Shown here: positions 5,330 through 64,000 of the stretch, one piece after another
Layout: the number at the start of each line of letters is the position of its first letter
Position numbering within the stretch: the stretch's first letter is position 1
From: Selaginella moellendorffii
Lineage: Eukaryota; Plantae; Lycopodiophyta
DNA: 64,000 bases
Direction: 5' to 3'
Assembly (NCBI RefSeq): GCF_000143415.4
Contig: NW_003314273.1
Coordinates: forward strand, 1,188,074-1,252,073
Position numbers and translations under genes: made by a program
Notes under the pieces: generated by a model
Told to the model about the DNA's origin: nothing
The model's database searches: none
Seen by the model: the letters and a program-made list of their open reading frames with translations, nothing else

Positions 5330-5662
5330 CCATGTAGAAATCCTCCACTATACCTTGTGTGTTCGCAAGGTTCTCCTCTAGTTCCTATGTTGCTTTGCAG
5401 TGTGGAAATCCTTTCCACTTCACATGGACTCTCTCACCTCGTGTCCTTGTCGTTTGCTCTTGCGTGCATTGAGGATGGCCTCGACTTCATATTCCTCTTC
5501 CCCTTGGATAACCTTAGGTAAAGGTCTCACTTGGTCCTTGCAAAGCAGATCCTCAAAGTATAGCTTGAGTAGGTTTACAAGGAACACTGTGTGCATTGTC
5601 CCCATCTCTCAAGCAAGTTGGAGGTGGTAAGCCACTTTACCGATTCATGCCTCAATCTCATA
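5330..5662 (-). pseudogene. Integrase C-terminus/chromodomain remnant of family A
   Basis: HTVFLVNLLKLY...EEEYEVEAILNARK, then VKWKGF in a shifted frame. The upstream integrase sequence continues at 20227. Confidence 0.8.
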
Positions 5663-5686
5663 AAGCTCTATTTTGTTAAAGTGGGA
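5663..5686 (+). repeat. Left terminal inverted repeat
   Basis: AAGCTCTATTTTGTTAAAGTGGGA matches the reverse complement of 20203-20226 at 23/24 positions. Confidence 0.92.
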
Positions 5687-6323
5687 TTTATTCAGTAAAA
5701 TGGGACTAGGTACAAATTTTCAAGTATTTGAAAATGACGTGAAATTATATGTTTTTTGTCTAGGGGCTAGACATATCTAGGGCATGGTGACTAGCGCGGT
5801 GACTTTGTGTCCAGACTGAGTCCATCTGGTTGTATAATAAATCTCATTGTCAAGGTGAACAAGCCGAATCTAAAGCTAAAGAAGAGCGATGGCATGCGCG
5901 CACACACTATTTGTTTGTTCATTGAGCGTATGGTGAGCTTTCCAAGATGAACGTCATTCCTATTAGCCAGACATATAACTTAATGGTGAGAACATTTAGA
6001 TATTATTCAATGTTATCTTTTTCTAACGAATCTAATTGTGAAGGTGTAGCAAGAGGCATTGCTAGTCTGGAGAAGTCATTTAACTCATTTGACCCTTAGT
6101 GTATTTTCATGAAACTAAATAACATTCATATTATTAAGGAATTTCTCTAGTACCTTTTTTTTACGACATAGAGTCTTGCATTTCTTTCAAAGGTGATTTA
6201 GTAAAAGGCCTGAGGGCACATGCCATTCTATTTCTCAGACCGGTATTAAGATATACTAGTGCAAAGGGGAAAAAGGTATTTGGTGATCAAGTAAATGGCA
6301 TGAGGGCACACGCCATTATAAGC

Positions 6324-6580
6324 CTAAGCGCTAGTGGACACCTCCTTTTTGGTACTCTCAGCGGTACTATCATCCTTCTCTGGGTCAGTTGTTTTGCTTT
6401 GGATTGTTGTCTCTGACGTTACTGGGGCGTTCTCGATAGTTGTTAATGTTGCCGTTTGTTCAGAAAAATGATCACCTGGAGTATAGTACGGGGAGTTTGG
6501 AAGACTTATATATTCTACATCTTCACCTATCTCCTTCTCCGTCTCCTTTTCTGCCTCACTTACAGATTTTGTGCTTGCCA
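6324..6580 (-). CDS. Possible acidic/Thr-rich 3' exon or small ORF of the transposon
   Basis: Open frame MASTKSVSEAEKETEKEIGEDVE..., co-oriented with and downstream of the transposase. No recognisable domain. Confidence 0.3.
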
Positions 6581-7308
6581 TGAGAACGCTCTTCACCCTA
6601 AAATATGGAGTTCGTTGTGTTATAAAAGGAAACCAACACACACGCTGCAAGGGAATGATGGTACATAAAGCACGTAAGCCCACAATATGGGTTTATGTGC
6701 CATTAATATGGGCCACACGCCATATTATTAGATTTATGCACGTGTGATTGGTAAATGCATATGTCACATCATCTTTGTTTTACCTCACACACTATATCAG
6801 GCCTAATGAACCATATCACATGTGCGCACATGCTATATATATGGAGAAGTATTATGCAAGGATAGAAAAATTCAATGCATGATTGTGGAGAGCAATGGCA
6901 TGAAGCCACATGCTAAATAACATTTTAGAGAAAGAATTAAAATAGAAACATACAAACAGTACTGAGTGGACCAAGACTTAGAAGTGCACAATTGAATGAG
7001 GTATTTCTAATAAATATTTCACTCACCTCATATAGGAATGGCTACCACTCTCAAATGGCGTATCGCCTCATGCCATCACCTCGCAATTTGTTATAACAAT
7101 CCGATGAATTCATATTCGGCTTGTTCACCTTGAACTTTAAGTAAGATTTGCTAGAACAACTAAGAATTTATACTTGTTATTTGTATCATCTCACCTAGGA
7201 ATGGCATAAGGCCACATGCCATCACGCCTCCTCTAATTCAGATTCGGATTGTTCACCTTGAAATAAAATACATTAGAAACTTAGTAAAGGAATATTAATG
7301 AATCTCAC

Positions 7309-10075
7309 CTTGAACCCGGGTTATGAATGCCCTTGCTGCATCTCTTGCATGGTCTGGCAAGGTGATGGTGGCACTCTACTTCCGCATCCAACCATGCACA
7401 ACATTATCCACCGATATGCTCATGCTGGGATCCCTTGGATTCAGCACCCATCTCTTTTCTAGGCAATCCTTCGTATATCCGGAACTTGGCTTGAACCACT
7501 CCACAGTTACATTGAAGGAGTTAGTTTCCGCATCCTCCTCTGCATCAGTGATGCAGCGCCCCACCCATATCATTTGTTTTTTATTACTGGGTCTGACAAG
7601 CACGACCATTCCTTTGCAGACCTGTACTGGATTGAATGCTGAATCCGGCTTCTTGTTCCTCGGCCCACAATAGTGATCCTCAACATCGTTATCTGTCACT
7701 GCATTTCCAGAGGACATTGTTCCGCTACTATCTGGTGCTCTGGGTTCTGGCCAAAAGGACTCTTCCAATTCTTCATATACAACCGGCCCATTTTGGATAG
7801 CAGATATAATCTTCTCCCAGTATTCGAGCAAAGGCTTGCATCTCTGAAAATAGGATTCTCCACCAAACACCAACCCCCTCTTCCAGAAGGCAATATGCTG
7901 TCTAATCCTGGCCACTATACTTTCCTGGTCTTTGAGTCCATCCGGGTGCATCGGCCGTGGGGAACCCTGAGGAATCATAGGTTCCCCAGTTATGGGATCT
8001 CTCTTGAAAAGTTCAATGCCGTCCACTGGCAGCCACACTGTGTCCCATTCTCTCATCTTGTACCTCATCACTGGAGCACCGTCACACATGCTGAAATGAA
8101 ACTGAAGAGGCTTGGAGTGGCCAATCAACATTTCAGATCCGTCCCTGATGTAGCCTCTTACAAACCCCTTAAAGTCTGGAACCTCTGTCACAAGTGCAGC
8201 TTCAACAGTGCCTTTGATGCAATTTTGGAATTCATCGTAGAATTGTGGGAGGGTGAGGACATTAGATCGCCAGAGGGACTCTGCCAGGTGACTGAACATG
8301 GCATCGATGTCTTCATGAGTGTGCCCAACCATGAGAAAGCCAAGTGTAACCGTTTCAAATATGCCTTTGGCAACAAGCATCGCCAAGTACGCGAAGCCGT
8401 ACATGTTTTTGTTCTCACTGCCAGCATTGTCTGTTTGGAGCAGAAGATGGGGTGGAAGGCCACATCGGCCGCAAGAACTTCCTTGAGATTCTGCTTCGTT
8501 TGGATGAGGCTGTGCATTCACCGGGCGACCAGCCTCGTCGGAATGCCATGAGGCCTCACGTGATAACCCTACAATCTGACGGCCAACATATTCACTGGGA
8601 TGGCATGNNNNNNNNNNNNNNNNNNNNNNNNNNNNNNNNNNNNNNNNNNNNNNNNNNNNNNNNNNNNNNNNNNNNNNNNNNNNNNNNNNNNNNNNNNNNN
8701 NNNNNNNAATCATCATATTTGCACCCCCGCCACCCCATAGAGGTACAAAGAAGTCCCATAGTTCTGGGCACCATGCCCATGAGCGATTATGCCAAATAGA
8801 GACACAGGCAGCTGCATGGATGAAGAGATTGCCTTGGGGGCAGGATTGAGTCGAGGTAAGCACGTCTTTTTCTGGTCCATTTTGTCGTGGATGATGCAGA
8901 GGTAAGAGTCAAGTCTCTCTATGGAGAGAATCCTGTTATGATAATATGCAGTCCTGCAGCTTCTCTGCTCGATGTTGTGGTCGAGCTACCTTCTAACCAA
9001 CGTCTCTCGCTCTTGAGCGATGCAAGAATTCTTCGACAAAGCCATTTTGATAGCAATGCACTCGTCACACTTTGAAAAGCTGGAGTACTTTCCTATACTC
9101 ACATCCCTGAACCTGTTTCTCCACAATCTACTAAATCTAGATTGGCTCAGCTTCCTGTAGCCATTACTCTGGAGTTCCCGATTCACATCTTCCAATATGG
9201 CCAACTTGGTATACATGGAAGGGAGAACTCGTTGGGTGTCTCGAGTTCCATCTTCCAAGAGGCGGGTTTTATGTGGTTGCTGCTCGGTACATGTCTCGAC
9301 AAACCTCTTGAAGATTGCCTCTCCATATACAACATGACCCCTGGTTTTGTGAGTACCGTCGTTCCCATGGACTGCCTGTTGAACCCTTTGTTCCTCGAAC
9401 TCAGTTTTGATTATGTAGAATGTGGTTCGAGGGACTCCATAAATGATTCTCCATGCCTTCATGCAGACCAAACCCCTCTGGAAGACCATGCCCCCCACCT
9501 GATGTTCTGAAGCATCAACAAATGACCGTAATGCCTCATACACAAAATTGCGAGCTGCCTTCTAGGACAATGTCTTGTATCTTGCTCTCTCCTCTTCAAT
9601 AGCATCCCAATCAGCATGTTGACAGCACCTCCTCTTGCAACAAGCAACTGTCGAGACCATTCGAACCTCCATCGCCATTTTCTGCCTTTTCGGTTCGTTG
9701 CTCAGATCCCTTTGGCTGCGCTTTAGGAAGGTGTACTTTCTTTTCCCATGAAGAGATGTTATGTCATCAGTTGTAGTGGTGTTTGATTGTGAATCCTTCA
9801 CATTCTCAAACACTAAGTGCCTCAATTTCCACCGCACAATGCTTCCAATAGTCAGACTGTTTTCTTCTGTGTCAACAACCTCTAAAATCACAACTCCAAT
9901 ATCATCCCAGCCCAATTCTTGATTAGCAACCGCATCTCTTGGATCGACAACTATGGCTAAGCCCTCAGCTACCACCTCCCCCTCGGGGTTGTTTAGAAAC
10001 ACCTTTTCCTGAATCCATGTAGCACGGTTCTTAAGATCCACAGAGGGAACATGCATCGCACTTGCGGAGGCTATT
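7309..10075 (-). pseudogene. DDE/D transposase, Sola-like/DUF7869-type, disrupted by 3 in-frame TAGs, a frameshift near 8754 and an N gap
   Basis: Motifs in order: CCKRRCC, VCMKAWRIIYGV, FSKCDECIAIK, YLCIIHDKMDQKKTCLP, LLLQTDNAGSENKN, FLMVGHTHEDIDAMFS. Splice acceptor at 10076-10077 and donor at 7308. Family recognised from memory of the motifs. Confidence 0.85.
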
Positions 10076-10227
10076 CTGAAAGTGCAGAAAAGAAGTTAAG
10101 ACCATACAAAAAATGATTGGAGAATGGCCTAAATCATAACATACCAAACAACCTCAATAGCATGAGGCCACATGCCATTATTCAAACATGCTATTGACAC
10201 CCATGTGAAATTTCGCATTCACAAAAT

Positions 10228-10552
10228 TGGCATGAGCCCTCATGCCATTAGTGGTACCACTAATGGCATGAGGCCTCACGCTATCTTTGGCCCCTGCTAG
10301 CCTGTTGCTATATTCCNNNNNNNNNNNNNNNNNNNNNNNNNNNNNNNNNNNNNNNNNNNNNNNNNNNNNNNNNNNNNNNNNNNNNNNNNNNNNNNNNNNN
10401 NNNNNNNNNNNNNNNNNNNNNNNNNNNNNNNNNNNNNNNNNNNNNNNNNNNNNNNNNNNNNNNNNNNNNNNNNNNNNNNNNNNNNNNNNATATAGGCAAA
10501 GGATATGGCAATAGGCTAGCAGGGGCCAAAGATGGCATGAGGCCTCATGCTC
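10228..10552. repeat. Nested inverted repeats/hairpin around an N gap
   Basis: 10228-10283 is a near-perfect palindrome centred on GTGGTACCAC. 10264-10316 is the inverted copy of 10501-10552. Confidence 0.85.
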
Positions 10553-10890
10553 ATCTTGATAAACACACAGCTACAGGCAGGTAAAGAAACTATTGGCAAT
10601 ATGCTAGTGATGAACTTGCAAGCCCCAAGATGGCATGAGCCCTCATACCATTAGTGGTACCGTAGCGCCACTCGCACCACCGCAACTGCTCGTAGCGCCG
10701 CTCGCACAAACTGCCACTCGCATAAACTGCCGCTCGCAATGGCGCTCGCAATGCCGCAACCGCTCGTAGACGCATAAACCACAGCTCACAATGCCGCTTA
10801 CACAAGCAGCGCTCACTGCGCTCAGCGGAACCAAGAACACGGCGCACAAAAATGGTAGACCTAGGAATGAGTTCGAGAATTCAAAAATAA

Positions 10891-12822
10891 CACACGCTTG
10901 AACGTCACATCAAATCCTCTGACAAACCAGATCTTATGATTCGTCTGACAAATTTTAAACTGAGTAGCTTCTAGACTTTGCTGTCGGACGTTGAACTTTG
11001 TCACATCATGTCCTTGCCTCGATCCAGCTGTGCCATGTCAGTGATTCGAACTTTGCCATGCCATGTCAGCGATCCGCGCCAAGATTATTCGCCGTGTAAA
11101 GGAATAATTATGCTGTGTGTGTACGTCCATTTATGGCAATATAAGGCCACACGCCATTCAAAGAATAATGCTAGTCGAGCATTTTTTGGTGCATTTTTGG
11201 GTTCAAAATTGCATGAGCCCACACGCTATAAAGTTTACCTGTACCAAAAATAGAAACAGCTTTATTTACTTGGGAATTTAAGTGGTTGAGGCATTTTTAA
11301 ACTTACAAACACATGCCCTACTTACATTCCTTTGGTTGCTTAAAATTCAAAAATATTATAAACTTTTCTTTTTGCATTTTCAATGTTTTCAATTATGGTT
11401 TTTGATTTTCGCAGGACCAGCCTAGTAATCTATTTGCATCCCGTCATGTTTATAGCTAGCTTTCGTTTGTCCCCTTCGCTAGCCTGAGATACATCTGCTC
11501 GGCATCTGCCTCTTACAGCATTTGCCCAGAAAGGGCATCTTTCTTCACGCAGCATTTGCCACATGTTTAGGGTTTAGGGTTTAGCAATTCAGTAGCTTGA
11601 TAAACATGCAAATACAGAACTTGATGCAAAATCCTTTGATATGTCACAATGCCCCTAGGACCATAAACACATTTCAATAGAGAGGGTCCTTTCATTTCAT
11701 AACTCCTTACGTAGATCTTGGTGAAACCAGAGTTAGTGAAGTTAGTTTCTTGTGATCCCGCATCTGATTGTGATGTCCCTTTGCAGTGTCGATGGAAAGG
11801 TCAATGCACACCAAACTGTAAAATCTTGGAGCAAAATAACGGTCGGATCTATGGCAAATGCCCTTGAAACATTGTAAGGCTCGTGTGGTCTCATGTGGTG
11901 TCCAATCGAGATGCTTCTTTGCAGGGTCATCAAGAAAGACATTGTATACCATTCTGTAAAATCTAGTTGCGATCTAACGGCTGGATCTCCAGAAAACTCA
12001 AAAAAATCTCGCGCGTGTCAGAATATTCTAGGAATATACTCCTATGTGCCCCTTAAAATGGCATGCGGCCCCACGCCATTCAAGAGATAACGCCAGATGA
12101 CACCGAGCATTTTTTGGTGCATTTTTTGGGATCAAAATTGCATGAGCTCACACGCTTGAACGTCACATCAAATCCTCTAACAAACCAGATCTTATAATTC
12201 CTCTGACAAATTTCAAACTGAGTAGCTTCTAGACTTTGCTGTCGGACGTTGAACTTTGTCACATCATGTCCTTGCCTCGATCCAGCTGTGCCATGTCAGT
12301 GATTCGAACTTTGCCATGCCATGTCAGCGATCCGCGCCAAGATTATTCGCCGTGTAACTGCTCGGCATCTGCCTCTTACAGCATTTGCCCAGAAAGGGCA
12401 TCTTTCTTCACGCAGCATTTGCCACATATTTAGGGAGGGTTTAGGGTTTAGCAATTCAGTAGCTTGATAAACATGCAAATACAGAACTTGATGCAAAATC
12501 CTTTGATATGTCACAATGCCCCTAGGACTATAAACACATTTCAATAGAGAGGGTCCTTTCATTTCATAACTCCTTACGTAGATCTTGGTGAAACCAGAGT
12601 TAGTGAAGTTGGTTTCTTGTGATCCCACATCTGATTGTGATGTCCCTTTGCAGTGTCGATGGAAAGGTCAATGCACACCAAACTGTAAAATCTTGGAGCA
12701 AAATAACGGTCGGATCTATGGCAAATGCCCCTGAAACATTGTAAGGCTCGTGTGGTCTCATGTGGTATCCGATCGAGATGCTTCTTTGCAGGGTCATCAA
12801 GAAGGACATTGTATACCATTCT
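10891..12822 (+). repeat. Internal direct duplications in the intergenic region of the transposon
   Basis: 10891-11099 matches 12149-12357, and 11495-11955 matches 12358-12822, both near-identical. Confidence 0.9.
11566..11584 (+). promoter_or_regulatory. Short plant telomere-type repeat (telo-box-like)
   Basis: TTTAGGGTTTAGGGTTTAG; duplicated at ~12429-12451. Confidence 0.55.
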
Positions 12823-13483
12823 TTATTTAGCTGAACATCTGGCATTTTTGGAAATACAAGATGCTTTGGAATATCCAATCATGCATGGTATAAATATAGC
12901 GAGGGTATTAAATGATATCCCAATCATGATCTTTCTTTTGGATTTCGCGTGCATGCAGTCTGAGGAATGATGACGTTGCGGATTTTTTTTGGATTTCACG
13001 TGCATGCATGCGCGTGGCGATCCAGAAATTAATGGTGGCGCCCAAGTCCGAGGAATGATGACGTTGCGGGATTACCAACCGTCGTGACATTTCGCGCGTG
13101 TGAGGTTAGGTTTTGCATTTTGCTTCGTACTCGCGCTCGCATCGCGCTCCCACTCGCGATCACGCTCACATTCGCGCTCATCTACCTTCTCTACAGGTTT
13201 CTCGTGTGCATCGGCATCCACTCGCGCTTACATCACACTCGCGCTCGCATCGCACTCGTGTGCATCGGCGTCCACTTCAAGACACACCCAGTTTGTAACT
13301 TCGCCGCCAACTCTGCCGCCCACTCCGCCACCCACACGCAGCCCACTTGGCGTCCCGGGAGATTTCAGCACCACTCTCCAACTGTAAGTGGCAGAGTAGC
13401 CTTGTTGCTACGATCCACTGCACAAACAGTGCACATTCGCCAGCGAGTCCGGCCTCGATTGTCACGCCTCCATTCGGCTTCAA

Positions 13484-16400
13484 ATGGTAAGTCTTTTAGG
13501 CCAAGTAGAAAATGGCATGAGGCCACATGCCATTCAGTAGCAACATTGGCATACACCGATTGGGCTCTCGAGTGCAGTCCGGTTACAGATGGCGTGTAGC
13601 CTCACGCCATCTTAGGATGCAGCCTCAAGACATCTGATGTAGTGGTGAATAGCGTGTGGCCTCACGTTATTTCCAGCTGCTAGCTTTTCATCTGTCAGCT
13701 CTAATTGTTGTGCATTTCTGAACAGGCGAGGAATTGCGTTCTTCTTCCAGCCACTGTCAATGTGGATGCAGAGAAGGGGGAGGAGCTCACCAGTTGGACT
13801 TTCGGGATGGAAGGCGAGGATCTGAGGCTGTACAACACAGATGGTGGGAGAAAAGAATGCATGGGGATCCTCATCCAAGTGACAGACACTCCATGCAGTT
13901 CCATGCAAGAATATGGACTGGCACTTGTGGTAGAAACAGCGTCTGCCTTCAAGATCCACCTTGCACATCCTAGCGGCTTCCCGGAGGGGGGCAGCGGCTA
14001 TGAGGAATTCCTAGAGGGAGCTAGGGAGAGGTTGTCCAGGAGGCCCACAATTTCAAAGATGCTGCGGTACTATGAAGATCACATGGAATCCACGGACCTC
14101 ACCTACGGCGATGTTCAAAAACTATATTCCAACATTGAGCTGTTGAGAGTGACTCCAGTTCGCGAAGCAAAGGGGAAGGGGGTCGATCTGGAAACTACCC
14201 CGAAGCAGAAAAGGGTGGTCAAGCTCAAGCCGACGTCCGACTCTCCTGCTCCAAAAAAGAAGCTACTCGGTGATGCCATTGCCTCGGGTTCGAACACTAC
14301 ACCCACCAAAAGGAAGAGCCGCAAAGAGCAGAAAGAGCAAGAAGAGGCAGCAAAAATCGTCGCAGATAATAGTACTTGTTACTATTCCAACAAAGTATAT
14401 ACAATCGACGTGAGCCACATCGACATCCAAAGCAAATACAACCACAGGCTAGTATCTGATGAGTGGGTGGAGAAACTGAAGCAGAAGATGCTGGCAAGTC
14501 CAGTAACACCTGACATCGCAGACGTGATCCCCTACTACCGAACAATAAAGGGCGAGATGAGGTTTCCAGACTTGATCAATAGGAAGGTGTTGGACGATCA
14601 GAACATCCGGTTCTATGCCGTCTCCGGGCAGCATTCTAGCTTGGCGATACAAGAGATAGTTGTGGATATTATGGTGGGCGAGGAGGTGAAGAAAGTCTTC
14701 AAGACAAGAGTTGTCTACCTGATAAAAGGCAACTCGCCCCTCCGATCTATCATATACATCTCCCACGCGCAGAATGTCAAGCAAGAAATGTGCTACAAAT
14801 CGGGTCTGCACGAGACATTGGCACGAACATGGAAGCTCTGGGTTCAACTAAAGAAGCCACAAAAACCAGGACAAGGACGTGCACTAGCAACTAGCGCCTG
14901 GCAGGTAAGCCTCGTTGCATGTGGCATAGCATGTGGCCTCACGCTATTTCCATTGTAGGAATTCTCGAGTCTTCTCTCGAAAACACTAGGGGTCAATGAC
15001 ACACTCAGCATCCATAACATTCTACTCGTGATAAAAGTTGTTTTTGACAAATGGGTAGATGTGTTGAGGAGGTACCATGACGGGGAGTTGCTAAACTCAA
15101 TGGGTGTGGAGGACGGCCGGAAGCCCAATGATTTGAAGCTCAATGCCTTGCGTTTCTCACGGTCTTTAGATGAGGACGACCTTCTGACAGTGGCTAATGC
15201 TCTTCTACGTGGTGAGGTAGTCTTCAACAAGACCAAAATGACTCCCGGCCATATTGTGACATACGAGGACTTGTGCACGACTCTGAGAGCTCGTGCGCTA
15301 TTGAAGGATTGGATCTTCGAGCAAGTGGCCATGGAGAGGGTGAGCATTGACATCACGCAAGAGATGATGGAAGAGCTGGAGTTGTCAAATGAAGACATCG
15401 ACGAGTACGTGAAGGGGGCCCCCAAGTTCATTAATCTGCTGCGGGATGCCACGAAAAGTAAAGCTGAGAAGTTGGATCAGTATCCAAATTTCATTAAGAG
15501 GGATGTCGACCGCCGGCTTCAGAAACAGCTCGACCCCGCAGCAGAGGCCTATCGAGAACCTTACCGGGTATACGTGAATTCGGATGAGGATCATAGGTGG
15601 AGGAGCATCGTTTCCCGCGGAGATGAGCAGGTCAAGAACATCTTTTGTGTGATGGACTTCACAAACGAGGAGATCACTCATGCAGACGAAGTCAGCTCCA
15701 TCATTGATTTAATGGTGGGACTTGCGGAGGTGGAATCTTCAGTCCATTATATGATCTACGACTCCGAATCCTATCACAAGTTCTAGAAGGCCTTGAACGA
15801 GGTGAAGGCTCGGTTGAAAGGCAAGGAGATGCGGGAGATCCATGGGATAATGGCTAAGAAGAAGATACCGACGAATGTCCGCATCTTCACACTCGCCCTT
15901 GTTATTGGTCCTGCAACAGAGTGGGACTGGAGTGACTTCCCAGCTTCGTTCGACAAGGCCGATCGAATTGATCTGAGGGAGGTCAATTTACCCGTGCCTG
16001 AGGAACTGAAGACGGCTATGGAGCTTTCGAATCCAGAGAAAGCTCCAGGTGCAGCATGGGAAATGCTCAACTGGGTCTTCAACGCAATAGCGGGTGGGTC
16101 ACCTGCTTCCGACTCCAAGGGCAAATGCGTTGTCGAGTACAATTGCGGCGGACTATTCTTTCGAGCCACACTACTCAAGGGTGTCCTGTGTGTTGTGGTG
16201 ACAAACTCCATTGAAGAGGTGACTTCAATGGAGCATATAATTACAGTTGCCAAAGAAAAACAGTATCTTCTCTGCGAACCTGGTGAGTACGCACTTTAAG
16301 TTTAAATGTTATCTCACAAGCTCTGTATGCAGGAGCGTGGCCACCCCCAGATGCTGAAACGGCGTTAATAGCTACTGTTGAAGATACCCATGTTGGGCCG

Positions 16401-19400
16401 AGCTCACAACCTGCACAAGGTAAGGTCACGTGAGGCCTCATGCCATTTTGATTATAGATCGTTGTGAATATTCAGACACGAGGACTGAAAAGCGCACTAG
16501 TGGCGCGTCGAAGAAGGACAAACAGACAAGCAATAGGAAAAAAGGAGGTACAAATTATATTTGCAATGGCGTGTGGTCTTATGCCATTCCTTGCAGGAGA
16601 CACTTCTTCAAAGGCAAAACAGGCAAGCACAAGCCAAGTACAACGGACGAGAGGTACCAATCATTTTTGTTATACGTGAATTCTCATGCCATTGCTTCTT
16701 GCAGCTCAAATTCCAAAGAGATTAGGGCAAGCAGCGCAGACCTCACGACAAGAACCTGAAGGTTTGATGGCGTGTGGCCCCACGCAATTAACTAATGTTC
16801 TTGCAAATCGTGTCGAGGAAATCGAACGGAACAACGTGCCTCTAGTGGAGGAGGGGGAGGCCTCGGAGAGTGATAAGGAGAGTTCCGAAACAGGTACGAT
16901 CATGACATATGGCCCCATGCACTTATCTAAGTTTGTATTTCAGGGGAACAAGTTGAACCAATGGAAAACTTTATGAAAGGTAACTTAAAAATATTATGGG
17001 ATGTTGCATGTGTTGATGCAATAATATACAGTTCAAGTGCCAAGGAGACGTCGTGAACCTCGAATTAGGCTACCTGCAAAATAGCTTTCAGATGCTGTAG
17101 ACAAAGAGATGGATAACCAACCAGGGCAGAGGAGGAAGGGTAAAAGCATTTGTGTGCTTATTGCGTATGTCCTCATGCTATTTCTATAGAACGGGCGCAT
17201 AAGAAACGAAAGCGAAAGGGAATTGAGGAGCAGGCACCTGAGGATGCGGAAGGCACGACAGAGCCTCCAAGGACGGGAAGTAAAGCGTCATGGTTATTGC
17301 GTGGGTCCTCATGCCATTTCTTGCAGATCAAGCTCAAACTGACAGTGGTCATAAAAAGCGAAAGCACGTTGGACAGTCGTGGGGATCAGAGGCGTTTGAT
17401 TCGAAAAGGAAGAAGGGCAACGAAAAGATGATAGGTAATGCCTCGCGGTTATGGCGTGTGTGCTCATGCCATTCATTGCAGATCAAGGGCTGAGTGAAAG
17501 CAGCCAGTCACCACCTCCTGACTCAGATTCCTATGGCAGACTCCCCTTCCCCAATCTCAATGGAGAGGTACAATGGATGAGGGATGCTTTTCAAGTCAGG
17601 GCCACGTTTTTCTCATCTCATCGTCTTTGAAGGGTGCAAGAATGTGCAGAAACCATGTTAAGACAGTCGGGTGAGGATACGGTCCTAGGTCATGCACTAA
17701 AACAGGCTATGGATGTCTTGTATTTTGAGATGGAGACTCGGCCAGATGATTTTCCCAAGATGGTCCTGGAAGAACAAGCCATCCAGCCTGAGCAGCCTAT
17801 GGAAGAAATGCAGGAGGGGGATGAGGAGCCAGAGAAAGATAATGAGCAGGAAGAGCAGAAGGACGAAGAGGAGGACGAAGAGGACTTGGATGGTCCTCAC
17901 AATGGTGACGATCACAATAACGACGATGACCATGATGACGACAATGGCCAACCTGAGGTGGCCAAAGAGCAGCGGAGGAAGGTCATACAAGACAAACCAT
18001 CAGGTAAATAATAGTACATCCATTCCTAACCTTTTACCATTTCTAACATTGTCCATGTAGGTCGCAGAGCAAATGGTAAGTAGAGATTATTCAGTTGAAT
18101 TAAGATACAAACTCTAGCCTTTAGTGTCGAGGAAGGATAGTGCCAAGCAAGGGTCGAAACGTATGTCCAATCCTTCAGAATCAGCAGTGCGCCTAAGTGA
18201 TATCGGTCCTAGTTCCTCAATAGCAGTTGATGGTAAATACAATATAGTCGATTCAATATGCTAATGAGTTTGTTTTTAGTAGCACGGAAGGATACCATCT
18301 CAATCGAAGGGAGATATTTGGACATGCATATGGAACCGCCAGTGGACTCTACTTGCCTGCAAGAGTCATCAGAGCTGGTGGAGGCTACTATCCATATCAA
18401 CGCCAAGCAAGCTGACCACGCTCCACTTGATGCTGCCCATACCACTGAGTCAATCTTGTCCATGTATCCAACTGACGGTGACCAGGCGCCATTGGACCCG
18501 CATGAGGCCGCCCCAGCCGCCGAGCCGGTCGTATCCTCATTTCCAACGGACTCAACGTGTGCCCAATCGTCTGACTACGCGCCGTTGGAACCTCCCTACA
18601 CCGCCCCTGCTGCCTGTTCGATCATGTCCACTTTGCCAACGGAGGCACTAGCTGAAATGGCGTGTGATCACACGCCATCGGAACCACCCCATGCCACTGT
18701 TGAGCCAGTTGTACCAGAGTCTACAACTGAAATGGCATGTGCCCACACGCCATCGGATGCGATTGACCCCACATTGCAGATGAGAGTATTTCCGCCTTTC
18801 ACGTTTCCTTGACCAAAACCCTCTCAACGACCATCGGGAGCACCATTCGCTAATATTGTAGATGGTAAAATTGACTTGTACCATTTTTTATGCTGACACA
18901 TTTCATTTCAAAGTCACGGCGAAGGTACTGTATCGTTTTTGATCTGAACGGTGTCCTTTTCTCCCATGAGCGTGGCTCGTCCTCGAATGTCACTGCACCC
19001 TCCAAAGCATGCGGTCGCAAGTTGGTCAAAAGAGACAAATTCACATTAATCACACGGGAGAAACTGCAGGATCTAATAATGACCATGCAACACTTAAAAC
19101 AGAGGGCCGGGTTCAATTTGCAATTGGGAGTTTGGACATCCATGATGCGCCACAATGCATTAACGTTGCTACAGATGATGCACGATCAGATGTGAGTAAT
19201 ATTACCATTTGACTTTCTCCTAACGCAGGAGGATTGCTTGACTATGGTCCATGTGAGGGGTAGCAAGCCCATCTTCGTCAAGCCAGAGGCTGTAGTGATG
19301 AACCGGACTGCTAGGTCAAGTGAAATCCTCATCATCGATGACTCGTCGATTAAAACTGCAGCGAACACGCACACATATGCAGTGCACCCCATCTCTTGCA

Positions 19401-19774
19401 GTATGGAAACTAGGGAGAAGAAACCGTATGTTCTGGGGGACCTTGCAAAACGGCTTGGAGCGATGGTGATAGAGAACCGGCCAGTCCAGGAGGTGGCTGC
19501 AGAAATCAACCAAATGGCAAATGGAACGGTATATCAGAAGCCATTTGATCGGACAAACACTAGTCATCATTTATGGCATGTATATTGTCTAGCCAAGCAC
19601 TATCCGCATCTCCATAATCTGCTCAACCGGATGGGTTCTTCGACCACTGAACATGAGCGTGGACATATTAGAGAAGAGATGGCATTACTATTGGGTTTAA
19701 ATCCTAATAGTGTGGAGAGTGATGAAATTCCAAGATTATTGTATAGGTGTTGGAAGCAAAAAATAACAGTCTGA
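13484..19774 (+). pseudogene. Multi-exon transposon cargo gene (~1,750 aa): ParB/Srx-like, degenerate MTase-like, low-complexity linker, FCP1/NIF HAD-phosphatase-like
   Basis: ATG at 13484, then frame-preserving GT-AG introns: 13487-13725, 14905-14958, 16283-16332, 16420-16475, 16548-16596, 16654-16704, 16762-16806, 16894-16943, 16980-17031, 17140-17189, 17280-17326, 17435-17481, 18004-18060, 18076-18124, 18233-18279 and 18865-18911. Five in-frame stops. Two acceptors are mutated here but intact in the copy at 61176-64000. Confidence 0.8.
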
Positions 19775-20202
19775 GATGGCATGTATTTATTTAAAAATGT
19801 AACTTATTATGGCATGGGGTTCCATGCCATTGTATTAATATTAAAAGACAATTCTTTGAGAGGATTTGCATTATACTAGAAGTGTTACAGCATGTTACAA
19901 CATGTTATTGGAAGTCTACGAAGTTGTTTTATTAATAAGGGGAAAGTAAAGATTGAATGGGGACTTGGGCTCCATCTAAACTCGGAGCAACTGAGCCAAT
20001 ATTAAAAGGATGGAAAGAAATTGGACGACGATGACAAGGAGAAGAGAGAGGTGAAGCAGTGGCAGGGGGAGGAGAAGTGATTGAGTAGACATTTCCTTAT
20101 TTAAAATAAAATGGCATGTGCCTCAATGCAGTTGAATTTTGTTATATTTATATACTATATAAAGGTTTGGAAACCTTATTTTACAAGTGGGATAATGACA
20201 AT

Positions 20203-20226
20203 TCCCACTTTAACGAAATAGAGCTT
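20203..20226 (-). repeat. Right terminal inverted repeat
   Basis: TCCCACTTTAACGAAATAGAGCTT, the inverted partner of 5663-5686. Confidence 0.92.
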
Positions 20227-21450
20227 CATAAGGCCCCACGAACCTGCTTAAGGAACTCAAGATCAGTTCATTTCCAGGAATACATGCATTTTTACCTTTG
20301 GGTAAACTTTCGGCTGATCCCACTTGGTAGCCTTAGGTTCTTAGTGTTCAGCCACACCTTCTCCCCAGGTTGGAACTCTACGTCCCGACGCTTCTAGTTT
20401 GCATACTTGGTTTGCCTTTATTGAGCCCGTTCCAAGGAATCCCTCACTAGATTCCAAATGTTGAGCCTTTCCGCCATGAACGCCTTCACTGCAAGTAACT
20501 CTCCATGATACTCGGCCATGCCGAGTTTCACAAGATATTCAATAGCCTGCCCATTGATGACTTCCCATGGATTCACCCTGATACTCGAGTGTGGTGAGTT
20601 ATTATAACACATTTCCACAAATCTCAAATAACTTACCCAATCGGTCTGGTCCTTCAAGACATAGCATCACAAATAATCCTCCAATTGCCTATTCACCCTT
20701 TCTGCTTGTCCATCTATCTGTGGGTGATAGGCTGTACTGAATTTCAACTTAGTGTGATATTGTTCCAAGAGAGTTCTCCAGAACCTACTAGTGAAGATCT
20801 TATCTCGATCTGAGATAATCTCTTCTGGCCTTTCCCGCATTCGAACCACTTATTTGAATAACAACTTCACCACACCTTCGGCATCCACTTCTGTTATGGT
20901 GGGTATGAAATATGCCATCTTCGAAAATCGGTCCACCACCACAAATATTGCATCGAACCCCTCACTTGGGGGGAGTCCCATGATGAAGTCCATCGTAAGA
21001 CATTTTCACGGACGATCTGGAATTGGGATGCTTTTTAACAAGCCCCCACTAGCTTTAGTCACGGCTTTGACCTGTTGATATATTGGACATCCCTTTACAT
21101 AGTCTTGGACGTCCTTAGCCATATCTGGCTAGTGATACTTCCTCTTATGTAAGCCCATCATCTTGGGCACTCCACCGTGTCCCGCAAGAGGTCCATCATA
21201 ACACTCTTCTAAGGCTACCTTCCTTAGTTCCCCTTCTGGAACATACACCCTTGTTTGTTTATAATAGATGAGTCCATTGTGTTCTGCATAGCTTGTTTTC
21301 TCTTCCATTGGCAGCTCACCTCTTTGGTGAGCTTCTCGCGCCTCCAGGTTCATCAGCAACACTGCTTATGCTAGACCATTATTCTCATACACTGTCTGCA
21401 CATCATCCCAAAAGGTTGCTATCGTGCTGGATATCACCAGCTTTAAGCTT
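20227..21450 (-). pseudogene. Gypsy integrase remnant (family A)
   Basis: ECYDGPLAGHGG; IISDRDKIFTSRFW; STAYHPQIDGQAERVNRQLEDYL. Confidence 0.9.
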
Positions 21451-27100: not shown

Positions 27101-28368
27101 AATTTTCGATCTCGATCTCTTGAGCCGTACGCTGTAGTGCCACAGCATCTAGCTCTTCCTCTTCTGACTTAGCCTTAGCCTCTTCCGCAGCATCTCTAGT
27201 AATAGTTTCCTCCTCTCGATTTGCCCATCTAGATGTTTTAGAGTCATCAGTATGGCTAGCTGCATGTATGCCTCTTTCAGTAACTGAATATGCATACAAT
27301 GTTCTTACCGAATGGTGCAATCCATCTAATCCTCCACAAGTCGCTTTGGATCTACTAAAAAAGTCTCTACGTATGCAACTTGAGTCAGAAAATCCAACAA
27401 AAGTTGGATAGGAATTGTTGAGACAATCCCTCTAATACCAAATGTAGCACACCTAAATTTGGAGCTGCACTCCAAGCCAGTTACGCTACAAAACAAGGGT
27501 CCAGTACAATCCCATGACCACCAGCTCCCCGTATCCAGCACTTGCACGCAAAATGGTGTCAGATGGAGTTTGGCGCAATTTTGGCATACCAGTTGCCTAA
27601 CACGAGGAGGAGCATACCCCACCAACTAGAGTAGCATGGAGCTTGGGCTTAAACCCAAGATGGACACAAAACAAAGAGCGACATAGCTCAACGGGAGCCA
27701 AACTAATATCTCAAATGGTCAGACATGCATTCCAACCACTATCCCTACTATACAATTGGAACCCCGTACAGCCCCCTCCCCCCCCCCCAAGGAACACACG
27801 ATTTGGGCTTTGGGCTTTCACTCCAAGCCTCCCTTAGTACTAGGAGTTAGTCTCTAGGACAAGCTCGAAACTTATTAAATATGGAATGTTCCTAGATTGC
27901 AAATTTGGATACGGGATGCACACCATTGTGTTCAAGCCAATCTTTACATTCTGTAGATATGCCAAATGAGCAAATCTAGACACTTTCCATAAATAGCATT
28001 TGGAACTGAAATAAGACCAACACAAAGGGTATGATAGTGAGGGTGTTTGGTAGACACAATAAGCTATCATTCAGCGATATTGAGGGAATAGTCTCAATAC
28101 GTGGGGGTTCTTGATACTAGCAACTGCAAGACAATGACACAAGTTTCTCAAACTAGGCCAAGTATACATAGCAAGAAACATATAGGGTTCCTACCTTATG
28201 TTTATCCAATTTAAGTACAAGGTTATTCACCAATTTCTCAACTAGCTCAAGTGAGAACAATAAAGGGAACCAACTGTATTGACCTTCTACCATCATGGCA
28301 GTAAGGAAAAAGTGTCCGTAAAGATTTGCTGACAATTATTTTTTGATACCTGAAGTCACATTTGCGAC
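24176..28368 (-). mobile_element. Truncated gypsy element (family B): 5' LTR 28368-27443, PBS 27440-27430, gag, protease, RT, RNase H
   Basis: PBS TGGTATTAGAG; gag KPPNFRG...LEDWVYDIENYF; protease MIDTGATHSVI; [10 protein letters not shown]; RNase H HCDAFGYAIGAVLQQ. Confidence 0.88.
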
Positions 28369-31300
28369 AAAAATCAACAATGGAAACCATCTCCATAGTA
28401 AAACAATTATCAACAACAATACTAAAATAATCAGCAATAGAAATTTTCTCAACAATCAAATTACCAACAATAGCCACAATAATATGAATAACAACCTCAA
28501 GCATATCCTTGAAACAACTGTGAGCAACAAACTTAAACTTACAACTTTCAACCTCAATACTAATAATAACAAAATCAAGGGACCAACCATCTTAGAATAA
28601 TTAATCTAATCATAGACCTCCACCAATAGTAAGAAATATCAATATAGAACTAATTGAAGAAGAGCTATATAAAGACAAACCTAAAATCCAAGTTCTCAAA
28701 TGAACTCAAAAGGACATAATTCTTTAAGAAAAAGACCTTGACAACAAAATTAAAAGACAAGAAACTTATGATGAAATACAAGAAATTTCAAGAAAAGAAT
28801 CAAAAGAAGCTAAAAAACTTATCAACATAGTGCAAAAAAACTTTTAACAACAAAAACCTGAAATAAAAGATGATCAAAAAATCACAATCCAACCCATATC
28901 AAAATATGAGAAGCAACTACAACTCATAAACAAAATTCTTTAACAAGGTAACACGCATACCCTTCAAGAGTTTTTGCAGATCACTTCATACTTGAATAAA
29001 CAATTCTTTAAAATTTATCAAGCACTAGCATAAGTATAATCAATTGAAATCAAGAAAAAAACTAGCAATACTTCAATCCACAAAACTAATATCTAACCTA
29101 GTGACTTTGATAAAGATGTGCCATGCATTCCAATCTTAATAGGAAAGAAGAAAATTCCAGAAGCAAATGTCAACATTATTGAATACTTAGCATGCAAAGT
29201 GATGGGACTTGGACCAATTCAGCCAACACCCTTTAACATCCAGATGATTGATGACAAAAATGTAGAACCTTTTGGAATCATCTACAATATCCTAATCAAA
29301 ATCAAAGATCAAAAGTTTAAAGTAGTTTTCATCATATTCAAGATGGCTAAAGAACACTATTTCTATAAAGTGCTCCTTGGACAAACTTGTGGAAGAACAT
29401 AATCACTTTTAGAGAGCATCAAGATTCTCCTTAACTTTCCACAAATACAATAAAGAAAATTTAGAAGAAATTCTAACAAACTATTATTAAACACTACAAT
29501 TGGAATGAAGACCTTAATGACTATAAAAAAACATAAATTTTGAAAGCATATCTAGAATTGAAGTCCTTTATTGAAGTTGATCTCAACCGAATTATCCCCA
29601 AGTTTAACCTAATCTGCTCAACAAAACTACGAGAAACTTCTGACTCAAGAAGATTCAACACTCAAGACTACACCAGCAAAACTCAAGAAACAGCATAACC
29701 AACCAGGATCAAACTTGAGCAACTCTAACAAATTCTTGTTATGATCTAAATCTCTAGTAATATGAAGTTTCTTAAATCATTTTCAATTCCTAAGTTGATT
29801 TTTCAATTGATTCTTCAATATTGAGAATTTGCAAGAGTTGAAATCCTTTTTGTCAAAGAGTTAGTTCTTCTCTATGATTGACTTGTTGTTGAGCAATTGA
29901 TATTTTAGACAAGTACAAAGATGTTTTTGCTTGGCCTTATACAAATTTGAGAGGAATCCCTCCAAAATATGCATGACTAAATCAAACTTTTTTCTCAGAT
30001 TGTATTAAGAAAACAATCAGCATACCAAATGAACCCAATATGCAACTCAAAGTCAAGGAAAAACTTGACAAACTTGAACAAATCAATTTCATCTACCCAA
30101 TCTAGATTCTAGAATGGCTATCACTACTAGTAATTGTTCCTAAGAAGAATAATAAACTCAAGATTAGTGCTCAATGATGCAATATAAAAAGACACATTTG
30201 CAATTCCCTTCTCTGAAAAAATTCTCAACACAAATGCTAGACGCAAAATATACTCATTCCTTAACAGCTTTTCAGGATACAACCAAGTTACACTTGAAGA
30301 TCAGTATAAGACAGCTTTCATAAACCTATGGGGTGGTTATACATACCTACATATACTATTTGGTCTTTCCAATGCACCATTTACTTTCTAAAGAATCATC
30401 ACGAACACTTTTTAAGAGTACTTCACAGAATTCATATGAGTTTTCATGGATGCCTTCAGCATTTTCAATAGCAAAGAACACTATCTCTAATGTCTCAAAA
30501 AATGCTTCATCAGATATTGAGAAAACAACATCTCCTTAAAGTTTGATAAATGCACTTTCTTTATCAAATCCAAAGTTATACTTAGACATGTTATCTGCAA
30601 AGAAGGCATCCTCATTGGTAAAGACAAGACTCTACCATCACCAACATGCAACATCCAACATACATCACCCAATTTCGAACCTTCCTTAACAAAATGGGAT
30701 ACCATTGATGATTTATTAGAAATTAAACAAAGATTATCAAACCATTTATTGAACTTTTCAAGAAGGATTAAGTCTACAAATGGACTCAAGAATGTCAAGA
30801 AGCTTTCAACATACTCAAGAATTTGCTGACAAGAGCTTTAATACTTGCTCAACCAAGTTGGAGAAAAGACTTTAACATTCAAGTCAATACCTTTTCCTAT
30901 GCAATAAGAGTGGTTTTTTCACAGTAGCAAAAAGACCTTAAAAATTGACCAATCTACTATGCCAATTAAAGACTCAATTCAGCTAAGATGAACTATACCA
31001 CTACAAAAAAAGAAGCTCTCAGAATGGTCTATGCACTTTAGAAATTTTAACATTACCTTCTTGGCAATAAAGTGAAGATTATGATAAATATAACGTGCTT
31101 CTACACCTTCTTAACAAAACCACCAATAGTTTTCTCAAGAATATAATATTGAGATCATCCACAAGTCTAGTAAGAAACATGAACAAGCTGACCATTTTAA
31201 TTACATCATAATAAGTGAATAACCAAAGTATAACATAGATGATTTCCTTGACTCCAACATCTTATGAGTCTATACTTTACCCTAAACACATGACATCTGC

Positions 31301-32050
31301 GACTACCTAACTACAGTAAAAATACCAAGCCAATACACCACCTCTAAGCAACATAAACAATTTGTCTTGGAGCAAGACCATATTTAGTTGTGAGAGGAAG
31401 ACTGTGCAAGTTAGGATGAGAAAATGTACTATGAAGATGTGTACAACCAAAAGAAACTCAAAATTTATTTGAAGAAGCTCACTACATATAAACAAGAGGA
31501 CACTTTGCAGAAGAAATCACAACTCAAAAGATTTTACAAGCAAGATTTTAGTGGCCAATGCTCTAAAACAATTTAAAATTTTTTTTACAAGAATGTGACA
31601 TTTGTCAAAGAACTAATATGCACTGAAAAAGCAAATTCAAAAACTTCATCTTATGACTCCTTTCGAACCATTTGAACGATAAAGACTCGACTTTACGACC
31701 ACTTACAACAAATTCTAAGTGAAAGAAGTACATCCTTATACCTACTAACTACATGACAAAATGGACTAAAACTCAACAAATGAGGGTTATAACAATGAAG
31801 AACATACCAAAACTCATCTATAAAAACATTATCACAAGGTATGGTTTATCTCAAAAACTTATTACAAATTAAGGAACATACTTCATCAATGAGACCATCA
31901 ACATTTTGACTCAAAAGTTCACAATCAAGCACAAAGATTTAACACCATACTATCCTTAAGAAAATGGTCAAGTCAAATCTATAAACAAGACCCTCAAGAA
32001 GTTCATGAAGACAAATAAAAAAGACTGAGACGATTGCATTTATAACGACT
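28369..32050 (+). mobile_element. Highly decayed A-rich gypsy pol (protease, RT, RNase H, integrase)
   Basis: Residual motifs FSGYNQV (~30270), NYTTT..EAL.MVYAL (~30990-31040) and GHFAEEITTQKILQA (~31500). Possibly resumes at ~33780-34100. Confidence 0.75.
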
Positions 32051-32690
32051 TGTAGACATATGACTTTGGGTGTCAAAAGTTACCTGTCGATTAATCCTTT
32101 CGAATATTCTTTCTTTACTACCATGATGGCAGAATATCGGTATTATTGAACCCTTTATCAGTGCTTCTTGTTCAAGTGCTAATAAACTGGGCTTAGCACC
32201 TATACTTAGCAAAATGAATAAAAAGTAAGAACTTCTATATATTTTTTGCTGAGCATAGTCGACTTAGCTTTTAGTTCTCTTTTACTCTGTCTTGCACTAG
32301 TTTGACAAGAACCCTCATGTATTAAGATTAGTCTCTCAATATTGCTGAATGATAGCTTATTGTGTCTACCAAACACCCTTATTATCATGCCCTTTATGTT
32401 AATCTTATTCAATCTTAATTGCTATTTATAAAAAGTGTCTAGATATGCTAATTTGGCATATTTATGGAATGTAGAGATTGTTCTAAACACAATGGTGTTA
32501 GTCCCGTGTCCAAATTCACAATTTAGCACCATTCCATAACTTTCAAGCTTATCCCAGAGACTAACTCCTAGTACTAAGGGTGGCTAAGGGTAAAAGCCCA
32601 AAGTATGTGTTCCTCAAGAAGGGGGGGGGGGGCATTGTTTGGGGTTCTAAATGTATAGTAAGTAGGTTGAGCATGGCCAACCAACCTGAG
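32051..32690 (+). repeat. Family B LTR, inverted relative to 27443-28368
   Basis: Its reverse complement aligns with ~27740-28368 (e.g. cccttagtactaggagttagtctct and gggtgtttggtagacacaataagctatcattcagc). The right boundary is approximate. Confidence 0.85.
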
Positions 32691-36582: not shown

Positions 36583-36682
36583 NNNNNNNNNNNNNNNNNN
36601 NNNNNNNNNNNNNNNNNNNNNNNNNNNNNNNNNNNNNNNNNNNNNNNNNNNNNNNNNNNNNNNNNNNNNNNNNNNNNNNNNN

Positions 36683-61175: not shown

Positions 61176-64000
61176 TCAAGCAATCCTCCTGCGTTAGGAG
61201 AAAGTCAAATGGTAATATTACTCACGTCTGATCGTGCATCATCTATAGCAATGTTAATGCATTGTGGCGCATCATGGATGTCCAAACTCCCAATTGCAAA
61301 TTGAACCCGGCCCTCTGTTTTAAGTGTCGCATGGTTATTATTAGATCCCGCAGTTTCTCCCGTGTGATTAATGTGAATCTGTCTCTTTTGACCAACTTGC
61401 GACCGCAGGCTTTGGAGGGTGTAGTGACATTTGAGGACAAGCCACGCTCATGGGAGAAAAGGACACCGTTCAGATAAAAAACGATACAGTACCTTCGCCG
61501 TGACTCTGAAATGAAATGCGTCAGCATAAAAAATGGTACAAGTCAATTTTACCATCTACAATATTAGCGAATGGTGCTCCCGATGGTCGTTGAGAGGGTT
61601 TTGGTCGAGGAAACGTGAAGGGCGGAAATACTCTCCTCTGCAATGTGGGGTAAATCGCATCTGATGGTGTGTGGGCACATGCCATTTCAGCTGTAGACTC
61701 TGGTACAACTGGCTCAACAGTGGCATGGGGTGGTTCCGATGGCGTGTGATCACACGCCATTTCAGCTGGTGCCTCCGTTGGCAAAGTGGACATGACCGAA
61801 CAGGCAGCAGGGGCGGTGTAGGGAGGTTCCAACGGCGCGTAGTCAGACGATTGGGCACACGTTGAGTCCGTTGGAAATGAGGATACGACCAGCTCGGCAG
61901 CTGGGGCGGCCTCATGCGGGTCCAATGGCGCCTGGTCACCGTCAGTTGGATACGTGGACAAGATTGACTCAGTGGTATGGGCAGCATCAAGTGGAGTGTG
62001 GTCAGCTTGCTTGGCGTTGATATGGATAGTAGCCTCCACCAGCTCTGATGACTCTTGCAGGCAAGTAGAGTCCACTGGCGGATCCATATGCATGTCCAAA
62101 TATCTCCCTTCGATTGAGATGGTATCCTCCCGTGCTACTAAAAACAAACTCATTAGCACATTGAATCGACTATATTGTATTTACCATCAACTGCTATTGA
62201 GGAACTAGGACCGATATCACTTGGGCACATTGCTGATTCTGAAGGATTGGACATACGCTTCGACCCTTGCTTGGCACTATCCTTCCTCGACACTAAAGGC
62301 TAGAGTTTGTATCTTAATTCAACTGAATAATCTCTACTTACCATTTGCTCTGCAACCTACATGGACAATGTTAGAAATGGTAAAAGGTTAGGAATGGATG
62401 TACTATTATTTACCTGATGGTTTGTCTTGTATGACCTTCCTCCGCTGCTCTTTGGCCACCTCAGGCTGGCCATCGTCGTCATCATCGTCGTCGTCGTTAT
62501 TGTGATCGTCACCATTGTGAGGACCATCCAAGTCCTCTTCGTCCTCCTCTTCTTCGTCCTCCTCTTCTTTGTCCTCCTCTTCGTCCTTCTGCTCTTCCTG
62601 CTCATTATCTTTCTCTGGCTCCTCATCCCCCTCCTGCATTTCTTCCATAGGCTGCTCAGGCTGGATGGCTTGTTCTTCCAGGACCATCTTGGGAAAATCA
62701 TCTGGCCGAGTCTCCATCTCAAAATACAAGACATCCATAGCCTGTTTTAATGCATGACCTAGGACCGTATCCTCACCCGATTGTCTTAACATGGTTTCTG
62801 CATGTTCTTGCACCCTTCAAAGACGATGAGATGAGAAAAACGTGGCCCTGACTTGAAAAGCATCCCTCATCCATTGTACCTCTCTATTGAGATTGGGGAA
62901 GGGGAGTCCGCCATAGGAATCTGAGTCAGGAGGTGGTGACTGGCTACTTTCACTCAGCCCTTGATCTGCAATGAATGGCATGAGCACATACACCATAACC
63001 GCGAGGCATTACCTATAATCTCTTCGTTGCCCTTCTTCCTTTTCGAATCAAACGCCTCTGATCCCGACGACTGTCCAACGTGCTTTCGCTTTTTATGACC
63101 ACTGTCAGTTTGAGCTTGATCTGCAAGAAATGGCATGAGGACCCACGCAATAACCATGACGCTTTACTTCCCGTCCTTGGAGGCTCTGTCGTGCCTTCCG
63201 CATCCTCAGGTGCCTGCTCCTCAATTCCCTTTCGCTTTCGTTTCTTATGTGCCCGTTCTACAGAAATAGCATGAGGACATATGCGATAAGCACACAAATG
63301 CTTTTACCCTTCCTCCTCTGCCCTGGTCGGTTGTCCATCTCTTTGTCTACAGCGTCTGAAAGCTGTTTTGCAGGTAGCCTAATTCGAGGTTCACGATGTC
63401 TCCTTGGCACTTGAACTGTATATTATTGCATCAACACATGCAACATCCCATAATATTTTTAAGTTACCTTTCATAAAGTTTTCCATTGGTTCAACTCGTT
63501 CCCCTGAAATACAAACTTAGATAAGTGCATGGGGCCATATGTCATGATCGTACTTGTTTCGGAACTCTCCTTATCACTCTCCGAGGCCTCCCCCTCCTCC
63601 ATTGGAGGCACGTTGTTCCGTTCGATTTCCTCGACGCGATCTGCAAGAACATTAGTTAATTGCGTGGGGCCACACGCCATCAAACCTTCAGGTTCTTGTC
63701 GTGAGGTCTGTGCTGCTTGCCCTAGTCTCTTTGGAATTTGAGCTGCAAGAAGCAATGGCATGAGAATTCACGTATAACAAAAATGATTGGTACCTCTCGT
63801 CCGTTGTACTTGGCTGGTGCTTGCCTGTTTTGCCTTTGAAGAAGTGTCTCCTGCAAGGAATGGCATGAGACCACATGCCATTGCAAATATAATTTGTACC
63901 TCCTTTTTTCCTATTGCTTGTCTGTTTGTCCTTCTTCGACGTGCCACCAGTGCGCTTTTCAGTCTTCGTGTCTGAATATTCACAACGATCTATAATCAAA
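61176..64000 (-). mobile_element. Second, inverted and truncated copy of the giant DNA transposon (cargo-gene exons)
   Basis: The reverse complement is near-identical to 16447-19241, with the same exons, introns and palindromes. It continues past the window end. Confidence 0.95.

Follow-up and report, generated by a model that had tools for sequence, protein, structure and literature searches.

Why would a plant gene carry the same palindrome in one tiny intron after another? The question is raised by a 64,000-nucleotide stretch of the Selaginella moellendorffii genome (assembly GCF_000143415.4, contig NW_003314273.1, positions 1,188,074 to 1,252,073; hereafter the window), in which a predicted gene at 13484..19774 (+) contains a run of introns of about 50 bp, most of which hold one copy of an imperfect 22-bp palindrome. 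We found that this motif array belongs to a larger feature, the internal repeats of a 14.6-kb transposon, and that the transposon context, which was not named when the array was first described, explains the observation. By analogy with self-activating transposons of flowering plants, we lean slightly toward the view that the palindromes are binding sites for the product of that gene, the element's own accessory protein of ~1,765 aa. This protein would likely help the element keep its copies active against host methylation.

The element is a cut-and-paste DNA transposon with terminal inverted repeats (TIRs), 14,564 bp long, at 5663..20226. Its 24-bp TIRs lie at 5663..5686 (+) and, with one mismatch, at 20203..20226 (-). 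They are the only two TIR-like matches that a TIR search returned in the window, and they are flanked by a CATA target duplication (5659-5662 and 20227-20230). The target was a Ty3-type long terminal repeat (LTR) element, whose uninterrupted equivalent, the empty site, is found from 59278 onward in the window; the empty site at 20229 was also read by one contig of run X3. Deep family contigs in X3 and X4, two DNA-like runs from sample S3 whose library is not on record, represent further copies. A second, partial copy at 61176..64000 (-) is 96-97% identical to 16447-19241 and is cut at 61176 by retroelement sequence. The element carries two divergently arranged genes: the accessory gene, with 17 predicted exons and five in-frame stops in the window copy, and a transposase-like gene at 7222..10095 (-), whose exon limits are predicted and which is broken by stops, a frameshift, and an N gap at 8608-8707. 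The transposase-like gene encodes Pfam domain DUF7869 (E 6.4e-38), which we take to be a transposase core. TIRs, a 4-bp duplication, an empty site, a transposase-like gene, and dispersed copies are all present, as is typical of cut-and-paste TIR transposons. Of the 27 differences between the copy at 5663-20226 and run X4, 21 are C-to-T or G-to-A changes in CG or CHG context, and such sites make up 288 of 903 cytosines. Therefore, the window copy was methylated. Between the two genes, 10891-12735 contains recent duplications (98-99%), each with short TTTAGGG runs (11565 and 12436) that resemble plant telo-boxes.

Where in the element does the motif occur? A repeat search gave the consensus ATGGCRTG-WGGCCW-CAYGCCAT. 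Scanning with a symmetrized matrix and a counting cut-off of 6 bits, we detected 33 copies in the element between 5889 and 20132, nine in the second copy (61664-63881), and none in the 46,400 other positions of the window, host genes included. Coding sequence makes up 56% of the element, yet only three of the 33 copies fall within it and 30 are non-coding, although the sites are not independent of each other. Moreover, 21 of the 33 lie outside the introns of the accessory gene, including in intergenic and near-terminal DNA. Seventeen are on the transposase side (5889..12158), in the 3' region of the gene, upstream of it, and in intergenic DNA; they have mostly the opposite polarity, and one at 8543 is in or near coding sequence. 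Two more lie between the accessory stop codon and the right TIR (19809..20132). The outermost copies are 226 bp from the left end and 94 bp from the right end, and because the motif is unlike the TIR, it is not simply an end-recognition sequence. The remaining two occupy a single coding exon of the accessory gene at 18657..18753 (+), with starts at 18657 and 18732, 75 bp apart. They translate as near-identical peptides, and therefore the DNA motif shapes the protein there, contrary to the first-pass annotation of this DNA, which had the motifs placed without touching the protein.

Both assembly gaps in the element (in the 8543-8707 and 10317-10489 regions) adjoin motif copies, and the first directly follows half a motif at 8600-8607. 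The transposase gene may hold a motif-bearing intron at this gap, so the coding call at 8543 is uncertain and the count of 33 copies is a minimum. At 7030-7260 and 5850-5910, a motif begins at the predicted transposase stop codon; the last transposase exon and its motif are duplicated downstream, with one inverted copy near the left end.

In the accessory gene model, two phase-0 introns are predicted near the start, intron 1 at 13487..13725 (+) with motifs at 13512, 13589, and 13649, and intron 2 at 14905..14958 (+) with a motif at 14926; the three copies and one copy reported earlier were thus recovered. Nine phase-1 introns of 45-56 bp had been described between 16283 and 17481. Their size and phase held, but the count did not: ten introns of 45-56 bp, all phase 1 with a GT..AG pattern, are predicted in this range (16283-16332, 16420-16475, 16548-16596, 16654-16704, 16762-16806, 16894-16943, 16980-17031, 17140-17189, 17280-17326, and 17435-17481, all on the plus strand). 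Intron 16762-16806 ends in AA in the window copy and in AG in the second copy and run X4. Four more phase-1 introns, which lack the motif, follow in 18004..18911 (+), with starts at 18004, 18076, 18233, and 18865, bringing the run to 14 in the gene model.

Eight of the ten introns in 16283..17481 contain the palindrome, with starts at 16425, 16566, 16671, 16767, 16902, 17160, 17296, and 17451, each one base before the position first given. With a matrix trained only on the 25 copies outside 16283-17481, these eight score 6.8-29.8 bits, and the background maximum is 5.7 in 46,400 positions. The weak copy is the one at 16671 (6.8 bits), not the one at 16902 (18.1 bits) that had been singled out. 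A degenerate trace proposed for 16980-17031 scores -7.4, a value reached by 0.3% of background positions and not significant because about 30 positions were tried; the absence of a motif from 16283-16332 was confirmed (-11.4). The motif fills 39-49% of each intron, close to the ~40% estimated at first, and starts 5-21 nt from the donor without forming intron ends. Across 28 intron pairs, identity is 0.71 in the motif and 0.35 in the flanks (155/440; chance 0.30), a contrast that is partly built in because the motif was chosen for its similarity. By this measure, the motif seems to have been kept while the rest of the intron diverged, as had been claimed. Other parts of the earlier description are less uniform than they seemed. 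K, R, E, and Q make up 14-50% of the exons, and the first exon reaches only 14%. The motifs, said to be parked every 110-150 bp, are 96-258 bp apart, four phase-1 introns lack them, and the deep form of the family is without five.

Are these introns removed from the transcript? Splicing of the mini-introns is predicted from the gene model. The three raw frames contain 15, 22, and 18 stops, and the second copy, spliced over the eight introns that it covers, is stop-free with GT-AG ends. Run X4 is without the stops at 17082 and 17628 and has AG at 16806. For intron 2, the open reading frames (ORFs) of two relatives end at most three residues from the donor site, and a Selaginella gene model reads WQ-EF across the site, the same as the predicted model. 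No RNA reads fell on the mini-exon region in X9, X10, or X11, and X1, X2, and X20 yielded no contig there. About 12% each of raw runs X9 and X10 gave 189 and 117 reads, nearly all at 13381-13420, and X11, X2, and X20 contributed none. This 40-bp part of the upstream region, with 167 (X9) and 108 (X10) RNA reads whose ends come from another transcript, is a fragment shared with an expressed locus. Contigs of X1, which may be DNA, pass unspliced through intron 1. A joint between 13534 and 16431 in X3 was set aside as a match of the 22-bp motif.

Is the motif read as DNA or as RNA? We did not find compensatory covariation between the arms among the 33 copies. Positions 6 and 17 vary independently (AT 11, AC 10, GT 7, GC 4, other 1; Fisher p 0.71), positions 9 and 14 are mismatched in 20 copies, and 27 copies retain the inner G:C pair 10/13, although it could not close an RNA loop. 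At positions 6 and 17, the tolerated changes convert CG to CA or TG; C5 and G18 are unchanged. Because the arms do not covary, and because the motif is confined to the transposon and avoids coding sequence, a double-stranded DNA site is favored over an RNA hairpin. The initial preference for DNA binding sites is thereby retained, and the hairpins offered as its alternative are weakened. The motif may double as a branch point: in the six introns in which 8-12 nt separate its end from the acceptor, its right half contains a YTNAY, with 14-18 nt following the A. In most other introns, the branch-like A is equally far from the acceptor; the YTNAY consensus carries little information.

How did the array form? 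The 14 phase-1 introns fit duplication of exon-intron units, because a one-intron unit keeps the frame only if its phase is reproduced. The last two units have 15 of 21 non-motif intron bases in common (p 0.002 after 28 pairs), plus the first six exon bases, and exon-plus-motif units are duplicated also at the 3' end of the transposase gene and in the coding exon at 18657/18732. The other unit pairs mostly show a similarity close to chance; among exons, 2 of 45 mini-exon pairs exceed z 2.5, a weak signal. The amplification of exon-intron units that was originally suggested is therefore supported by the shared phase, the last two units, and the transposase 3' units. For the remaining, diverged units, we infer duplication.

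The array can also shrink. A joint between 16634 and 17329 has a depth of 113.5 in X3 and 93.4 in X4, compared with only 6.6-8.3 inside the skipped segment, in contigs that do not phase molecules and at depths that are not copy numbers. The skipped segment, 16635..17328 (+), is 694 bp long and holds six introns and five motifs. Its loss removes 295 intron and 399 exon bases and is in frame only under the gene model, an outcome expected one time in three by chance. Both window copies are the long form, and 4-bp microhomology together with the divergence of the six units suggests that the short form is a deletion from the long form. Most family copies in sample S3 appear to lack the six exon-intron units, which speaks against a need for a dense array or a 110-150-bp spacing.

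What kind of protein could bind the motif? The accessory protein has a NIF/FCP1-like phosphatase domain at its C-terminus (Pfam, E 2.8e-5) and an acidic/basic low-complexity middle part. A possible intron at 19192-19228 was dropped from the model, as the NIF-like motif stays in frame when this segment is translated. A search of 1.84 billion representatives yielded four distant relatives, one of them from S. moellendorffii (E 2.8e-9). Word-based protein searches gave nothing new, and no related loci were found in viral contigs or, for query A1, in metagenomes; locus L001 was rejected as a spurious bacterial match. A single-sequence structure model has a predicted local distance difference test score (pLDDT) of 33.5, and the A2 model 49.6. 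Foldseek returned no match with E<=0.001, and the best VIA-align Z of 6.5, obtained with a low-confidence model, was to assorted alpha/beta folds. By eye, an SGQHS motif resembles ParB/Srx cores, with no significant match; neither profile nor fold searches matched ParB/Srx, and the only model covering this part has a pLDDT of 33. The accessory protein also aligns below threshold with the S-adenosylmethionine (SAM)-binding strand of bacterial beta-class N4/N6 DNA methyltransferases (hhalign E 0.08-0.21; hmmsearch E at least 0.07), and the only plasmid matches of one relative are four DNA methyltransferases with E 7-9. No DPPY-type catalytic motif is visible in the protein. The ParB-like and methyltransferase-like resemblances are leads, below significance.

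In layout, the element works like the VANDAL/VANC system of Arabidopsis. In VANDAL21, the 9-bp motif bound by VANC21 is found in introns, intergenic DNA, and terminal non-coding parts (PMC5735166; PMC10398659), and VANC genes show repeat-linked exon/intron variation (PMC5735166). Both are large DNA transposons with an accessory gene and a family-specific motif in non-coding DNA that includes introns, and here 30 of 33 motifs are non-coding and none lies outside the element. However, the Selaginella element is not a member of that system and shares no domains with it: Pfam scans of its proteins gave DUF7869 and NIF only, no DUF1985 or DUF287. DUF7869 takes the place of the MuDR transposase of these Mutator-like elements, the 24-bp TIRs are intact with a 4-bp duplication, and a 22-bp palindrome, mostly one per tiny intron, stands where VANC is described as having 8-9-bp motifs in tandem arrays. 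VANC is also described as dicot-specific (PMC13547354). En/Spm (CACTA) elements similarly encode a regulator with family-specific clustered motifs, as is predicted here: the 10-bp motifs to which TnpA binds are clustered at the termini of Spm (10.64898/2026.08.24.746577). TnpA sites and effects are terminal, whereas the ends of the Selaginella element are not CACTA and its motif, a long dyad, occurs throughout the element.

To which superfamily, then, does the element belong? A 4-bp target duplication and short TIRs reportedly define Sola elements, as Bao and colleagues are said to have set out in 2009, and the Sola1 duplication length is found here. The putative third catalytic Asp lies in a GHTH..D stretch that, like the TIR features, looks Sola1-like, and we treat that superfamily as an assumption. 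Sola1 is listed for Physcomitrella (PMC9033089). Literature searches turned up no Sola element with an accessory gene or internal motif array, no paper on DUF7869, and no paper on a ParB and methyltransferase combination in a Selaginella transposon. No description of such an element appeared in the literature searched, which excludes subscription journals and Repbase, and Repbase may hold the family; the portion of PMC4738411 consulted describes no such plant family.

How would binding by the accessory protein produce these patterns? A symmetric phase-1 exon-intron unit with its motif would have been duplicated in the low-complexity part of the gene, and units would later have been lost again. 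If a dimeric or two-domain protein reads the two halves, the motif would be kept while its flanks drifted. Binding would tolerate methylation damage, because either CG or the product of its deamination would be allowed at positions 6 and 17. The branch-point-like YTNAY of six introns would come from the right half of the motif, allowing a 22-bp site to fit a 47-54-bp intron. That the accessory protein would be the binder, and that binding would bring activation or relieve silencing, is proposed solely by analogy with VANC and TnpA. Several observations weigh against this proposal. Five of the eight intronic motifs seem to be absent from most family copies in sample S3. Searches of the accessory protein against Pfam, PHROGs, NCBIfam, and PDB sequences, and by fold, had no significant result other than NIF and identified no DNA-binding domain. 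The motifs of VANC and TnpA measure 8-10 bp and, in the parts of the sources cited above, are not reported as palindromes. The motif is polarized with gene direction and flips between the two genes (G6/T17 14 vs A6/C17 3, p 0.013; T9/T14 14 vs A9/A14 2, p 0.004), a polarity that suits an RNA-level signal as well; these p values, and those for mismatches given below, are generous, as motif copies share descent. Finally, six of eight intronic differences between the two window copies (16548-17481) fall inside motifs. This recent divergence shows decay rather than selection, as expected for decaying methylated copies.

Could another factor read the motif? The transposase itself might bind it, for self-activation or for assembly of a transposition complex, with the accessory gene merely a host. 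Motifs flank both ends and point outward from the center, and the AtMu1 transposase sequence-specifically activates its own copies according to a 2026 preprint (10.64898/2026.08.24.746577), but the motif does not resemble the TIR and reaches its highest density far from the ends, and we consider this improbable. Slightly less probable again is that the motifs act in RNA: hairpins would mask the branch point or be recognized by a protein, and would thereby gate splicing of the accessory and transposase transcripts. Six introns have a branch-like A in the right arm, motif introns fold at -2.9 to -16.2 kcal/mol compared with -0.7 to -9.3 for motif-less ones, and sense-strand mismatches lean toward the G-U type (28 vs 14, p 0.04). 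However, this lean is gone without position 6 (14 vs 11, p 0.69), the fold is weak for several copies (16902: -0.7), the center is conserved with no compensatory pattern, and copies occur in probable intergenic DNA (11136-12137).

Binding by a host transcription factor recruited by the motifs, for example in sperm-forming or spore tissue, is more doubtful still. The half-sites resemble RY (CATGCA) and TCP (GGNCCCAC) elements, yet the 22-bp dyad is longer than either and no copy occurs in the 46.4 kb of neighboring DNA, host genes included. That the array is a neutral by-product of duplication, or of introner-like insertion of short palindromes that created introns, is the least probable reading and is largely refuted. 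The same-phase introns, the duplicated units, and the absence of six units from most copies would all fit it. Against it, motif identity is high while flanks are near chance (in part by ascertainment), the motif floats relative to the donor, most copies are not in introns, and 14 introns of one phase are unexpected from independent insertions. Introner elements show similarity over the whole intron, form the intron ends from the repeat, and occur in mixed phases; here flank identity is 0.35, the motif is internal, and the phase is single.

Returning to the accessory protein as binder, its fullest version would be an anti-silencing system that evolved independently in seed-free plants. In a Sola-like element, an accessory protein with a ParB-like core, a dead methyltransferase fold, and an FCP1-like phosphatase would bind parS-like 22-bp palindromes in its own 50-bp introns, one arm would serve as the branch point, and the array would grow and shrink by in-frame units. 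We regard this combination as unlikely, although worth stating. Among the transposons of flowering plants, Mutator-like and En/Spm elements are documented cases of sequence-specific self-activation. If the proposal is true, an unrelated element of a seed-free plant would add a third case and show that the strategy recurs, and if the motif also serves as a branch point, it would be a compact case of one sequence read at the DNA and the RNA level. With its 22 bp, the site has the specificity that clean binding tests require and perhaps also that needed for targeted epigenome editing, and the accessory protein family, with relatives in Selaginella, is without annotation.

Elsewhere in the window, host-like ORFs with WD40 and MORN repeats lie at 46935-48668 (+) and 52756-53301 (-), respectively, and the best match of the MORN-repeat ORF is flagellar FAP266 (E 1.5e-20), which, together with the CG and CHG decay, suggests a seed-free land plant. 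An ORF at 36565 looks Helitron-like. Long inverted repeats with 70-88% complementarity are nested in two sets, at 27808-32603 and 35415-39098, and are probably other fold-back elements.

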